Shown piece after piece: positions 12,668 through 34,300 of a DNA stretch of 64,000 bases. Source of the DNA: Podarcis gaigeae (lineage: Eukaryota); the NCBI GenBank assembly GCA_964106915.2, contig OZ066914.1; one strand, written 5' to 3'. How positions within the stretch are numbered: position 1 is the first letter of the stretch; each line of letters begins with the position of its first letter. The position numbers and the translations under genes are program-made. The notes below the pieces were generated by a model. It ran no database searches. It was not told where the DNA came from and saw only the letters and a program-made list of their open reading frames with translations.

Positions 12668-12740
12668 TACTGGATAAATGAATACACTTCCACGTTGGGC
12701 ATTGGAGTCTTTCACTCTGGGATTGAGATCTATGGCAGAG
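12668..12740 (+). CDS. DESI2: DESI2-like (PPPDE peptidase) coding exon 2: [24 protein letters not shown]
   Basis: Polypyrimidine tract and tag acceptor ending at 12667; GT donor at 12741; 73 nt. Contains the catalytic His (CAC 12713-12715) in GVFHSG. The symbol denotes the family; this is probably a paralogue. Confidence 0.95.
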
Positions 12741-13503
12741 GTAGGAAGCTTTCTGCTAGTTGTGCCTGGAAATGAGTAAAACCTTCTGCTGGGTCCCAGA
12801 ATTGAAGGCTGCGAGCTTCTCTGTTTTGCTGCTCATCGCGGATGGGAAACTTGCCTTCTGAGGAGTGTGGCATCCATGCATGCGCAGTTGCTGTGCTCCA
12901 GTGCACAGTTTGCAACTGCCAGCCTTAAACACACACACAGATTCAAATAAGTCTAAGATCGGAGGTAGCCATGTGGTCAAACTCTTTGCAAGGCAGGATT
13001 TTAAGCAGAGCAACTTCTCTGATGACACTATCATGTGTGGCAGCTTCTGACTAAGAAGGGGCGGTGTGCATCATGTGACTTCGCACGCACAACATCCCAA
13101 CGTCGTACATGTGATGTCAGGATGTTGCATTGTGCACGCATCATTGGGCCGAGTGCACATCCCAGCATTGCATGGGTGATGTCACACATGCATGACACAT
13201 GTGTGATGTCACACACACGAGTGATGCTGCCCAATCTGGGGCACAACTTGACACCTCTGCCACTGTGAGAACAGGATGCTGAAGTAGATGGTCCCTGGCC
13301 TGATCGATCAGGGCTGTTATTACATTCTTATGGTTGTCACGATGTTCTTTATACAGGAAGGGCAGAGTTGAGGCCCATATGAAACCAGTTATGGGAAGAT
13401 ATTTGACTTAAATACTAACACTGAGCCATGTAGACAGTTGTGGCCTTTTTCATATGCAGCCTTGGTCTTATCCTTTCTTACGGTCTTTTTCTTTCCTTGC
13501 CAG

Positions 13504-13597
13504 AGTTCGCCTATGGAGGGCATCCCTACCCTTTCAGCGGGATTTTCGAAATCACACCAGGCAGTGCTGTGGAGCTTGGCGAGACCTTTAAATTCAA
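13504..13597 (+). CDS. DESI2: DESI2-like coding exon 3: (E)[30 protein letters not shown](K)
   Basis: cag acceptor at 13501-13503; gtaagg donor at 13598; 94 nt. Phase 1 in and phase 2 out, matching the neighbouring exons. Confidence 0.95.
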
Positions 13598-14953
13598 GTA
13601 AGGGCCTTTCCTTCTCCTCTCAACATCTGCTGTCCTGCAGCCCATGAATTGTCAAAAGGGCAATGCATTTTTAGGGAAGCACTTGACAACTGGTGGCAGC
13701 ATTCCCACATCCCAATAAACCATAGTTAATGAATGTGTGAATGACTCCCACGTTCCTGTTTAAATTATGTCATTAAATACACAAGATGGACAGCAACAAA
13801 AATCTTCCCAGCATATCACCTCCTTGCAGGTTTATGTACACACTGGGTCAACCTGCACATCACAGTATACCATAGTTTCTGGTTTGTTTTCCTCAAACAA
13901 ACCATGCTTGGTAAACCAAGATCAAACCTTGGCTTCTCAATATAGTTTGTTTGGAATGAATGAAAACTCAGCTTCTGGTTTTCAGATGTAATACTAAGCC
14001 AGGAATTGGAGTGTGTTGTTCCTTCTCATGCTGACACCACTTGCTGCACTGTTTCCCCCCTGGACTACATGTGAGGAGCCCATGCTGCAGCTTTGCCCCA
14101 TGCCAACATCCTTCATCTATGACTTTGGGATGGCACTGGCTTGGGGTGCAACTATAGCATGGGATTCTCCTCCAAATGGTCTGCGACTTCTCATATTACC
14201 GCCCATGGGCCAGGGCATTTATTGCCAAGTAGAATGAACAGCAATGAATGTGCCAAGGACTTTGGCCCAAGAGACAGAAAATATTTGGGCAATCTGTTGT
14301 AATCACACATTTTTGTGTGCAATCACAATTTATATACATAAATGTTGCCCAAGCAAGTTGTGCCATGCAGCATGATGAATCCATCTGCTAAAGGCAGCAC
14401 CAGCAGGGAATACAAGACCCAGAGTGTTTTTGTATAGTCCCCCAAACTTCCACTATAGTGTCCTCTTAAACAGATATGCCATTGCATCCAGTCCAATGCT
14501 TCATTCATGTACAAAACCCTATATGGTATAGACCTCGGTTCCATTTAAAAATTTAGCTCTCACCTCAAATTTTAAAGCTAGAATGTAAATTTAGAAAAGT
14601 GCACGTTGAGGCAGACTTATGAAAATGAGCCAGGCTTTTGCATTTCCAGAGGGGGTCTTGACTACCCAAATCATCTCCTTAATCCCCCCCATTGGTTTTC
14701 TGGTGCATAAGTTGCTGATGCAGAGGCTCAAGGATGGAGAGCTTACAAAAAATATTACAAACTCAGTCCTGTTGCATGTACCATTAAACATTTTTAAACT
14801 ATGTGAAGTTTAAACCCCAAACTATATCAGTAGAGCTCAAACCTACACTCTGTTTAGCATATTTTCCTCTCTCCTTCTCTTTTAAAAGAGAATATAAAAA
14901 TAGATTATGCTAGTACTATATCCTGTGTGCATGGCAAGAATGGTTTCTAATTA

Positions 14954-15122
14954 CCATATTTTTTGCACCATAACACTCACTTTTTTCCTCCTAGAAAGTA
15001 AAGGGAAATGTCTGTGCGTGTTATGGAGGGAATGCCTACAGGTGGAATGCCTACGGATTTTCCTCCTCTAAAAACTATGTGCGTGTTATGGTCGGGTGCG
15101 TGTTATACAGCGAAAAATACGG
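14954..15122. mobile_element. Tc1/mariner (Tc2-like) MITE
   Basis: TA|CCATATTTTTTGC...GCGAAAAATACGG|TA termini. Confidence 0.75.
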
Positions 15123-15361
15123 TAATTGTGTGAGGTTATTGTGTTGTTTTTAAGCTGAGCACTATCTGAATTACTTTCTAAGCTGTTTAAGTCTGTAGCA
15201 TTACTCTGTTCCAACATTCCATAAGGATTCCATCCTTGGCTCTATCTGCCAGGTAAAATATATCTGTACTACAGTGACTCTCTCCTGGGCTGCCTTAACA
15301 TCTTTCATGATTATCTTGCTGAATGTTCCCTGCTTTTGATGCTTACCTTTGCTTAACCCAG

Positions 15362-32054: not shown

Positions 32055-32668
32055 GAGAGCTGAGTGCAGGGTGGGGATGAAAGATGGACAAAACCGGCTA
32101 AACCAGGTGAGGGTAGCCGATGGGTCTCAAACCCTCCATGAGTTAGGAACCTCCCCTGCATGCGAAGACAAGCTCTGGCAGATTGAGCACACAAGACTAA
32201 TAGCGGGTCCAAGAGTCAAGAAGGTGATTTCTGCACGTGCTGTAGAGGGAAGTGAGGGGCAGATGGGGCTCGTCAACCTGGGAAGGTAGCCCATCTAGGA
32301 GAAGGAAAGCTCTGATCCAAATCTCTGCTGCCTTGTGGGATATCTTCAGGACAACAGAAGGCTAAGGAGTAAACCCTACATAAATATGGAGTGGAATCCC
32401 TAAGACTGTTGGATGGTGTCTTGTACACCTCCTTTGGGCAATTCCTGCAGCCAAGCTGGTGCCAAACGTATTGCTCTGCTTTCCTTTAGACCACATCAGC
32501 GAGGCCAAGGGTTGTGTGTGTTATCATCTGGGCAGCCCAGGACCTCCATACACACTGCCCAGGCTTGCACCCCAAGGAGATCACTTTGGTGCTGCTAACG
32601 CAGCAGTTTGACTTCGTCCCCAGAGATGCACTCCATTGTCTCTTGTGACAGATGGATGCCAACAACAG
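32055..32668 (+). mobile_element. Non-autonomous bipartite RTE-derived element (5'UTR-like joined to 3'UTR-like)
   Basis: Ends in gacagatggatgccaacaac like the RTE fragment at 29691. Contains the RTE-5'UTR-like motif agcccatctaggagaaggaaa and no ORF2 remnant. The 5' boundary is approximate. Confidence 0.55.
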
Positions 32669-32766
32669 CAGGATAATTTAACACTCTCCTGATTCTGTTT
32701 GGTGCAGAGCTCTGTATAATCCAGAAGCCTGCATGGAAGACAGGATTTCATTCCATTTTTTAAATA

Positions 32767-32995
32767 CAGTGGTACCTCAGGTTACATACGCTTCAGGTTA
32801 CAGACGCTTCAGGTTACAGACTCCGCTAACCCAGAAATAGTACCTCGGGTTAAGAACTTTGCTTCAGGATGAGAACAGAAATTGCGTGGTGGCGGCATGA
32901 GGCCCCAGTAGCTAAAGTGGTACCTCAGGTTAAGAAGTTTCAGGTTAAGAACGGACCTCCAGAACGAATTAATTTCTTAACCCAAGGTACCACTG
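32767..32995. mobile_element. Tigger-like MITE subfamily 1 (opposite orientation to the copies at 28364 and 34869)
   Basis: TA|CAGTGGTACC...GGTACCACTG|TA termini. Confidence 0.9.
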
Positions 32996-33479
32996 TAGCT
33001 GTTAATTCTCTGCAAAATAGCAGGGAGAAAAGGCATTGCTTTAACATTTGGTATAAAGAATATGCCATCTAGTGGATAAACGCAAGCACAGTGATCAAAT
33101 CTGCTTTGCCAATTTTAAGATGGTCGCATTACCGGGAAAGGGGGGGCTGTGTGTAGGTTTGGGCATAACAGCTTTAAAAAACGGCTTTATCAGATCTATT
33201 TTCCTTTCGCAGCCTCTAATTTAGTATGTCAATTATTCATTCTTTAAGGCTAGTGTCACTGCTGCCAAGCATATATGATGAGTTTTTGAGAGAGAATACT
33301 GTATAGCCCACCAGCCAGCTTCATATACACAGATATTAAAAAATATAGAAAAAGAAACACTGAGATAATCTGCCTGGAAACACCACCCATCAGATCTGGA
33401 AGTCCCAATTTCTAATGAGTACATGGGACTTCTGTTTACACGATGGTGTAGAACTTATAAGTTTGATTTGTTCTGATTT

Positions 33480-34300
33480 CTTATGCTTAGGGTAAAGATC
33501 CGAAATAACCCGTCGTCCGCACGGCGCCAGCATATGCTTTAGTTTATACGTTTGTGGTGTGCTGAAATGTGCTTTCAGGATTGAACCAATTAGCCGCGAA
33601 ATGATTCGGTGAAATCGAGGACACAAGCAGCACTAATTACTAATTATGTCCTTTATCTGTCTGCCTCCAAATTCGGGGAAACTGGACCCGTCGAATTTCT
33701 GCCTGCCAAGTCCTCCTCCCGTCGGTTTCAGGCATCTGGACCGCTAACCGGGTTCCCATTCGAGGAGTCCCTACGAATGGAATTTTTTATTTTTATTTCC
33801 ACCCCCCCCCCCTACCCTCGTTTCCCTTTTTGCAAGTCGGAACTCGGCTGCTCCCGGCTTCGGGATCCGAGGGACCAGCGTTTCGGTAGGACGCCGGAAG
33901 CGCTGCAGGAACGGCCTCCCCCCCCCCTCCGGGCCCAAGAAGGCGAGATACTGGGCCGCTCCAGCCATGGTCGGAATGCGAGCGTTGCGGAAGAGCAAGA
34001 CGCTACAGTATGGAGTCCCCATGATGGTGAGCGGCGGCCGGGGGAAGGGGGCGGCGGGCGGGACGCTCGCCTAGAACTAGCTCAGCAGAGGGGCCGCGAA
34101 GCGCTGGCGGAGGGCGGGGCTTCGTTTGCCAATGGCGGAGGCTGCAGCGCCCCGGACCGTCCGCGGGGGGGAGACCTTCTCGGGAAGGCGCGACGAGGCC
34201 TTGCGTCGGGCGGCGCTAGCGTTTCAGCAACGGCTCGCTCTGCGCTCCCCCCCCCGCTTAACTAGGGTCACGTGACAGCCCCCCCCGGGGGCAGATGAGA
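33480..34300 (+). promoter_or_regulatory. CpG-island promoter of COX16
   Basis: The main CpG-dense non-repeat tract in the window, spanning COX16 exon 1. Contains CCAAT (~33586), ETS-type CCGGAAG (33894-33900), GC boxes and the palindromic E-box GTCACGTGAC (34267-34276). Boundaries are approximate. Confidence 0.85.
33967..34026 (+). CDS. COX16: COX16 coding exon 1: MVGMRALRKSKTLQYGVPMM
   Basis: Strong Kozak context gccATGG; gtgagc donor at 34027. Matches the recalled COX16 N-terminus (MRAFRKNKTLGYGVPM). Confidence 0.93.

Follow-up and report, generated by a model that had tools for sequence, protein, structure and literature searches.

What kind of gene stands upstream of COX16 in a lacertid lizard, and is it the DESI2 known from human or a second gene? 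The question arises from a 64,000-nucleotide stretch of the Podarcis gaigeae genome (contig OZ066914.1, assembly GCA_964106915.2; this whole stretch is called the window here), in which a first-pass annotation, made from the letters alone, had described a DESI2-like paralogue. Taken jointly, the findings are best explained by four exons in the window being exons 2-5 of a functional lacertid sister gene of DESI2 encoding about 196 amino acids, a reading in which we place good confidence. The label DESI2L is used for this paralogue. Papers are cited by PMC number.

Gene structure

The four exons (Table 1) have acceptor tracts of 68-100% pyrimidine and join into 552 nt, or 183 codons plus a stop, with zero internal stops. 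All that the first-pass annotation had listed here was reproduced: GT-AG exons of 73, 94, 142 and 243 nt, stop-free and with the catalytic His and Cys intact, in tandem on the same strand about 11 kb upstream of COX16 (11,447 nt from stop to ATG); the Tyr is intact too. The last exon encodes the end of the PPPDE domain, then an acidic Ser/Thr-rich linker, and then a C-terminal motif. Pfam family PF05903 was found by three of the four exons individually (E 0.009, 5e-16 and 3e-5), the 94-nt exon 3 giving no match to it on its own, and tblastn with full-length homologues matched exactly the four exon sites (E 1e-9 to 1e-41), all remaining matches having E>0.2. Single-exon domain matches together with tblastn matches at just these four sites rule out chance exons. 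The exon 2 peptide has the same 24 of 24 residues in the frog and gar orthologues, and all 183 residues of the window recur unchanged in a Podarcis muralis record (P0001, residues 100-282).

Neither the ATG exon of DESI2L nor SYNJ2BP was found in the window by a motif scan of the three forward frames over positions 1-12667 or by tblastn. DESI2L has its own exon 1 (39 nt), MANEPVILNVYDM, in 33 of 98 named orthologue records, from sharks to dunnart. This and all later counts of named records (98 for DESI2L, 103 for DESI2) rest on the matches listed by three queries, namely the last exon (best 120 of 441 matches), the DESI2 tail (best 120 of 193) and the dunnart tail (best 120 of 284), and the database rows are representatives of 90%-identity clusters. 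With the ATG exon upstream of the window, the first intron would be longer than 12.6 kb; this intron and the three in the window (763, 1764 and 6774 nt) agree with the proposal of an intron-containing duplicate rather than a retrocopy.

Two lineages

The records fall into two types by their tails, SHISLGL...CRHTRV in DESI2L and SSVSQEL...GRHTKL in DESI2; for the last-exon query, rows 1-107 were of the DESI2L type and rows 108-120 were bird-type DESI2. Among the matches listed, DESI2L occurs in squamates, turtles, birds, a caecilian, frogs and the marsupial dunnart (Sminthopsis), and among fishes in sharks, rays, sturgeon, gar, bowfin, bichir and teleosts, while the DESI2 type occurs in placentals, birds, reptiles, frogs, chimaera, shark, ray, sturgeon, holosteans and teleosts. 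At least 18 species have one record of each type, four of them squamates: the amniotes Varanus, Crotalus, Naja, Ophiophagus, Chlamydotis and Aquila; the frogs Eleutherodactylus and Engystomops and the fishes Narcine, Huso, Amia and Lepisosteus; and the teleosts Cyprinus, Sinocyclocheilus anshuiensis, Gasterosteus, Echeneis, Acanthopagrus and Dissostichus eleginoides. Judged from their sequences, DESI2L and DESI2 form separate lineages, and most jawed vertebrates have retained both.

For a first tree, the window protein was combined with 62 of the 202 named records, all near-complete, and two exon-skipping isoforms were excluded from these 63 rows. In the resulting 61 rows and 181 columns, DESI2L (33 rows) separated from DESI2 (28 rows) at 100/100, with cartilaginous fishes, ray-fins, amphibians and amniotes on both sides, and the window gene did not group with mammalian DESI2, as the first-pass annotation had expected of a distinct paralogue. 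Since the types had been assigned by tail, a second tree was made from the core only (142 residues, 60 vertebrate rows with a short human isoform excluded, and eight distant outgroups), in which DESI2L formed a single clade (97) inside the vertebrate clade (96). In approximately unbiased (AU) tests on the core, a single clade of all amniotes was rejected (p 0.038), as was a single clade of all bony vertebrates (p 0.021); a DESI2 clade was not rejected (p 0.56). Two points weigh against so clean a separation: the free core-only tree leaves DESI2 at the base without recovering it as a clade, and the AU p values are modest. The presence of chondrichthyans on both sides and the rejection of a bony-vertebrate clade nevertheless place the duplication before the split of sharks and bony fishes.

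The window gene could instead be the sole DESI2 of the lizard, a translocated orthologue of the human gene. Its core is identical to that of Pan DESI2 at 123 of 142 positions (87%), and plain "DESI2" is the database name of many DESI2L records. We regard this as extremely improbable, given that both types are present in each of Varanus, Crotalus, Naja and Ophiophagus, that the window protein has 98.9% identity to the DESI2L of Varanus and only 75.4% to its DESI2, and that both the 100/100 split and the rejected amniote clade speak for two genes. On every count by which a DESI2 orthologue would be recognised, the window gene falls on the other side: the tree groups it apart, its neighbour is COX16, and its tail is of the SHISLGL type.

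Conservation

The first-pass annotation had called the paralogue divergent, but its catalytic core evolves more slowly than that of DESI2. In 11 of 11 species-pair comparisons, which are not independent and three of which take different species for the two genes, the core of DESI2L showed less change than that of DESI2; the tails gave mixed results. The core is identical at 142 of 142 positions among the window lizard, two snakes and five birds, and at 131-135 in sharks and rays. His29, Tyr100 and Cys107 are invariant in all 30 aligned rows. The acidic tail, described at first as unalignable, does align poorly to DESI2, but it is conserved among orthologues and is the most diagnostic feature of DESI2L: other reptiles and birds share 37-40 of its 41 positions, and sharks and rays 27-31, compared with 12-18 in amniote DESI2 (a range that excludes one rodent "like" copy at 10 of 41). 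Two features, WIN and MANEP, are ancestral, being common to fish DESI2; WIN is found in frog DESI2 as well, and WMN is a change of amniote DESI2. The WIN/WMN difference was dropped as a paralogue marker, with WIN present in 15 of 30 DESI2 rows.

With this degree of constraint, the idea of a silent or decaying duplicate is barely conceivable. Its one foothold is that the promoter and first exon are outside the window; set against it are the core identity of 100% among lizard, snakes and birds, the canonical splice sites, and a record (P0077) on a contig of 2,401 nt that covers all four splice junctions, as would fit a spliced mRNA from some fish-like source.

Origin of the duplication

In all eight same-species pairs compared (Varanus, Crotalus, Chlamydotis, Eleutherodactylus, Narcine, Huso, Amia and Acanthopagrus), DESI2L and DESI2 are on separate contigs of differing size, for example 200.3 and 259.9 Mb in Crotalus and 376.2 and 321.5 Mb in Narcine. 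Human DESI2 lies at 1q43-44 in the order RGS7...AKT3, ZBTB18, ADSS, DESI2, COX20, HNRNPU (PMC4334433), and human 14q24 holds SLC8A3, COX16, SYNJ2BP and ACTN1, with COX16 and SYNJ2BP as neighbours and no DESI gene among the 22 OMIM genes given in the available part of PMC10751923. The human gene orders on which the first-pass annotation had relied, DESI2 beside COX20 and COX16 beside SYNJ2BP at 14q24, were therefore correct. In chicken, COX16, SYNJ2BP, SLC8A3, RGS6, SIPA1L1, PCNX1 and MAP3K9 occupy 27-28 Mb of chromosome 5 (PMC10976558). With RGS7 flanking DESI2 and RGS6 near COX16 and SYNJ2BP, whole-genome duplication is favoured. ACTN1, MAP3K9, PCNX1 and SIPA1L1 likewise have paralogues at 1q42-43. 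It is thus probable that the split of DESI2L from DESI2 came from an early vertebrate whole-genome duplication that produced the 1q43-44 and 14q24-type segments. The age fits an ohnologue, being older than the split of sharks and bony fishes, with the vertebrate clade standing at 96 against outgroups of unassigned identity. Of the suggestion that this is an ohnologue, the age stands, and the genome-doubling origin itself is plausible.

Some observations fit this origin poorly. No lamprey or hagfish record was identified among the retrieved sequences. In zebrafish, chromosome 13 carries both of the PPPDE genes other than pppde2, namely pppde1 and LOC794838 (PMC2809080), and LOC794838, one of four zebrafish PPPDE genes in Tse et al. 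(PMC2809080), is probably DESI2L; if so, a simple picture of separate chromosomes fits poorly. The shared zebrafish chromosome and the lack of a cyclostome among the records would also suit a true and old paralogue that arose by small-scale duplication, either segmental or in tandem with a later move, before jawed vertebrates, as would the unlike immediate neighbours (ADSS and COX20 at one locus, SYNJ2BP and COX16 at the other). The separate contigs in eight of eight pairs, the RGS7 and RGS6 genes flanking the two loci and the 14q24 genes with 1q42-43 paralogues make this origin unlikely, and whole-genome duplication remains the preferred account.

Presence in mammals and probable loss in placentals

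The first-pass annotation had proposed a third DESI gene absent from mammals, kept in reptiles and lost in the mammalian lineage. It was right that vertebrates have a third DESI gene and wrong about mammals as a whole: species from sharks to dunnart carry DESI2L, and only placentals seem to be without it. The dunnart DESI2L record is 88.5% identical to the window protein. Among the matches listed by the dunnart-tail query, the first 107 rows are all DESI2L, with the dunnart as the sole named mammal, and eight placental rows at ranks 111-120 have DESI2 tails. All 38 named placental rows listed are DESI2-tailed, five called "DESI2-like" included, although 30 of the 38 come from the DESI2-tail query and are biased to that extent. 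A marsupial carrying DESI2L makes any loss a placental one, and DESI2L very probably disappeared on the placental stem, once marsupials had branched off.

A point against this loss is that placental absence was judged from representatives of 90%-identity clusters, one DESI2L cluster having 233 members. Placentals might accordingly retain DESI2L, hidden in large clusters or unannotated, a possibility helped by the listing of the best 120 rows per search. It is highly improbable that they do so, with zero placentals among the 107 DESI2L rows and DESI2 tails on all 38 placental rows, with a survey of the human system that speaks of a PPPDE "pair" (PMC13015453), and with a human SYNJ2BP read-through that goes straight into COX16 (PMC6862657). 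The placental "DESI2-like" records of Nycticebus, Otolemur, Thomomys and Perognathus were considered as DESI2L and rejected, since they have DESI2 tails and two of them stand among mammalian DESI2 in the tree.

A separate observation concerns the start of placental DESI2. Of the placental DESI2 rows (P0132-P0201), 16 have a first exon that can be recognised, and 15 of these start with M-G, as do none of 67 rows of DESI2L or non-mammalian DESI2. From the sequence, Gly2 of placental DESI2 could have arisen as a lipid-anchor site in the lineage from which DESI2L disappeared. Myristoylation of human DESI2 is a possibility. Under five names, the protein gave no match in six supplementary files of PMC4200515.

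SYNJ2BP and the read-through question

In 16 named models, taken from birds, teleosts and one lizard, DESI2L is preceded by SYNJ2BP PDZ sequence (15 of the 98 records were recognised by motif, and P0020 is the other); none of the 103 DESI2 records has it. In 15 of the 16 it is joined directly and in frame to DESI2L exon 2. Such models identify SYNJ2BP as the upstream same-strand neighbour, and the DESI2L locus is between SYNJ2BP and COX16. They also suggest a different reading, in which the window exons serve mainly as the downstream half of a SYNJ2BP-DESI2L read-through gene and the product is a soluble PDZ-PPPDE fusion protein. Apart from the restriction of fused models to DESI2L, this reading draws on the P. 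muralis record P0001, which is itself fused, on record P0093, which has a dunnart-like tail and is joined likewise, and on a human SYNJ2BP-COX16 read-through at the same locus (PMC6862657; PMC10452872). It is made improbable by the conserved exon 1 that DESI2L has for itself in 33 of 98 records from sharks to dunnart, by the first nine PPPDE profile positions, which are missing from the fusion, and by dozens of other records in which unrelated, species-specific N-termini sit on the same acceptor. These stray N-termini indicate that gene finders miss the 39-nt exon 1, so the fused models may be artefacts. An AlphaFold prediction of the fusion gave a predicted local distance difference test (pLDDT) of about 70-86 for the PDZ domain and a mean of 49.5 for the PPPDE part, the native control with the same 30 rows giving 39.7, so that the PPPDE domain was modelled at low confidence in both runs.

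In six aligned fusion models, the last PDZ strand (V-x-L-x-V/I; in P0001 at residues 92-99, where the sequence joins window position 12668) is in register with the strand VILNVY of DESI2L exon 1. Going by this alignment, the PDZ and PPPDE domains could compete for one strand in the fusion.

Proposed catalysis and targeting

The window gene belongs to the PPPDE family (peptidase C97): exon 4 alone scores 59.3 bits against a PF05903 cut-off of 29.2, and P0001, which holds the same 183 residues, scores 153.3 bits. The permuted order His...Tyr...Cys is intact and corresponds to the His38-Tyr101-Cys108 triad in PMC9012467. DESI2L would be a soluble permuted-papain cysteine hydrolase in which His29 would activate Cys107, with Tyr100 as the third residue, for Cys107 to attack the carbonyl of a thioester or isopeptide. 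DESI2L probably shares the chemistry of DESI2, the triad and the residues around it being invariant in both paralogues. Human PPPDE1 and PPPDE2 had high S-depalmitoylase activity on artificial substrates, and their deubiquitinase or deSUMOylase activity was reported to be weak (PMC9012467; see PMC10318531). By analogy, DESI2L would most likely act in protein S-depalmitoylation, or else as a weak deubiquitinase or deSUMOylase, and the "uncharacterised DUB/deSUMOylase" of the first-pass annotation names one option only. It counts against depalmitoylation that the result comes from two artificial substrates only, with no natural one named in the available part of PMC9012467.

The tail may be where the paralogues part. 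Of the 98 named DESI2L records, 88 have CRHTRV as their C-terminus and two more have CKHTRV, and the class I PDZ-binding pattern is present in 91 of 98 DESI2L records versus 59 of 103 DESI2 records; DESI2 no longer has it in teleosts (HQPRR) and some squamates (HHAKI). With a flexible acidic linker and a near-invariant class I PDZ motif, DESI2L would differ from DESI2 in targeting and not in catalysis. Whether the tail docks the enzyme on PDZ scaffolds at membranes, as its sequence suggests, is in our estimate evenly balanced. Weighing against a role peculiar to DESI2L, DESI2 ends in the PDZ-type HTKL in mammals, birds, frogs and sharks, and the motif is thus ancestral and not unique to DESI2L. 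Besides the motif, 91 of 98 named DESI2L records have a Cys five residues from the C-terminus (22500-22502 in the window), whose use as a lipidation site is speculation.

SYNJ2BP itself is a tentative candidate for the docking scaffold, and an unlikely one. Its known ligands have the C-termini HSETAL, VIATEV and ASGSSV (PMC8512817). A predicted complex of the lizard SYNJ2BP PDZ domain with the last 35 residues of DESI2L scored 0.46, the best of three controls scoring 0.01, with at least 86% of contacts shared between runs and a partner pLDDT of at least 47, which lends weak support. The mark was reached in the benchmark by 51 of 78 solved pairs and 2 of 108 mismatched pairs, but scores of 0.60 or less included only 5 of the 78 solved pairs and all four passing mismatches (of 180). 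The benchmark contains no peptides and PDZ-peptide complexes have already been solved, so that the score shows likeness and not a specific partner.

If DESI2L was deleted from between its neighbours, the human SYNJ2BP-COX16 read-through would follow naturally. This can be combined with the foregoing into a single, quite unlikely account, in which the tail of DESI2L, as an S-depalmitoylase, would bind the PDZ domain of SYNJ2BP, the SYNJ2BP-DESI2L read-through would be real, and the placental deletion would have left SYNJ2BP-COX16 read-through as its scar. SYNJ2BP is located at the mitochondrial outer membrane. In this account, SYNJ2BP and DESI2L would have been adjacent from teleosts to marsupials, docking would occur at that membrane, and placental DESI2 would have gained Gly2, a possible lipid anchor, as DESI2L was deleted.

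Relatives, names and significance

DESI2 (PPPDE1, PNAS-4; human 1q44) resembles DESI2L in its PF05903 domain, His-Tyr-Cys triad, acidic linker and RHT-x-aliphatic C-terminus, and the segments skipped in DESI2 isoform records match exon boundaries of the window gene. It differs in its tail (SSVSQELQ...GRHTKL versus SHISLGLHK...CRHTRV), its locus (ADSS-COX20 versus SYNJ2BP-COX16), its separate clade since before crown jawed vertebrates and its faster core. In comparison with placental DESI2, DESI2L lacks Gly2, and it is apparently absent from placentals. DESI1 (PPPDE2; PDB 2WP7 and 3EBQ) is of the same family, with His and Cys motifs that align, but it is much more distant, and the DESI2L tail is unmatched in it; these two structures were the only solved ones found with a teleost DESI2L query (E 2e-11 and 6.5e-11). 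An ESM Atlas search returned DESI2 clusters only.

The same gene is present in databases as "deubiquitinase DESI2-like", "DESI2" or "SYNJ2BP isoform", with no separate orthology group. In Narcine (P0064/P0179) and Huso (P0083/P0189) the names are swapped, DESI2L being called "DESI2" and the true DESI2 "DESI2-like". DESI2L is already in databases, often misnamed. The literature search found no paper that treats it as a separate paralogue in vertebrates, although the supplements of PMC3296468 and a Xenopus PNAS-4 paper may bear on it. The main text of PMC3296468, on genes lost in eutherians, gave no match; the gene could be entered in its supplements by Ensembl id. The gene was not found in the supplementary files of PMC5901865 and PMC6193309 that were searched.

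Two known systems invite comparison. Like the "elusive" ohnologues of Hara et al. (PMC5901865), which mammals and birds have lost, DESI2L is an early-vertebrate duplicate that reptiles keep and one mammalian lineage apparently lost; unlike them, it is kept in birds and a marsupial, which puts it outside the definition of Hara et al., and its core is slower, whereas elusive genes tend to be faster than the kept paralogue (PMC5901865). The human SYNJ2BP-COX16 read-through (PMC6862657; PMC10452872) has the same locus and the same upstream donor gene, but the fused models of non-placentals end in DESI2L, the gene next after SYNJ2BP, and not in COX16.

The vertebrate DESI repertoire thus comprises three genes and not two. 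"DESI2" entries of sharks, gar, sturgeon and teleosts are often DESI2L, a hidden paralogy, and results on fish and frog desi2/PNAS-4 accordingly need a check of which paralogue was studied and of redundancy. The loss is unusual in that DESI2L is more constrained than the paralogue that placentals kept, and the conserved PDZ-type tail offers a handle on how PPPDE enzymes find substrates. Lost early-vertebrate duplicates are themselves common, with 263 of 469 "elusive" genes having such paralogues (PMC5901865). DESI2L is a member of a known family with a known kind of loss and no new chemistry indicated, and its interest is modest.

COX16 and other features of the window

Downstream of DESI2L, exon 1 of COX16 lies within a CpG island (observed/expected CpG 0.83-0.88 at 33-35 kb), and the last COX16 exon is beyond the window end. 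COX16 and COX20 are non-homologous, and both are COX2-assembly factors. COX16 adjoins DESI2L as COX20 adjoins DESI2 (PMC4334433), which is probably coincidence. Rfam gave zero matches across the window.

Table 1. Features of the window, with positions counted from its first letter.
Feature	Position	Strand	Basis or remark
DESI2L coding exon 2	12668-12740 (73 nt)	+	AG before, GT after; PF05903; tblastn; carries catalytic His
Catalytic His codon (GVFHSG)	12713-12715	+	Intact
DESI2L coding exon 3	13504-13597 (94 nt)	+	AG before, GT after; tblastn
DESI2L coding exon 4	15362-15503 (142 nt)	+	AG/GT; PF05903 E 5e-16; Tyr and catalytic Cys
Tyr codon	15453-15455	+	Intact
Catalytic Cys codon (NCNHF)	15474-15476	+	Intact
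DESI2L last coding exon (exon 5)	22278-22520 (243 nt including TGA)	+	AG before; ends at stop
CRHTRV, class I PDZ-binding motif pattern [ST]-x-[VIL]	22500-22517	+	Putative binding
Two AATAAA hexamers	27460, 27646 (27460-27651)	+	Sequence only; candidate end of a 3′ untranslated region of ~5 kb
COX16 coding exon 1	33967-34026	+	Position and in-frame splicing to Pfam-matched exon 2
COX16 coding exon 2	51505-51582	+	Pfam COX16 PF14138 E 4.4e-6; AG/GT
Probable COX16 coding exon 3	63618-63680	+	AG/GT, open, in phase; no Pfam match alone
Repeat copies (first group)	25635-25860, 28359-28591, 32765-33001, 34864-35096, 52999-53239		Examples
Repeat copies (second group)	498-759, 20987-21232, 48194-48449, 58504-58727		Examples
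Repeat copies (third group)	2992-3426, 8711-9059, 34508-34854		Examples

In COX16 intron 1, an open frame at 49555-50199 on the minus strand matches a GIY-YIG nuclease (E 5.8e-6), and we take it to be probably the end of a Penelope-like retroelement. Next to it is a repeat, 50157-50494, with 95% identity to 5011-5351. Interspersed repeats of at least three families, 150-350 nt long and with a mutual likeness of 77-89%, are spread over the window, and they resemble lacertid short interspersed nuclear elements and non-autonomous DNA elements.

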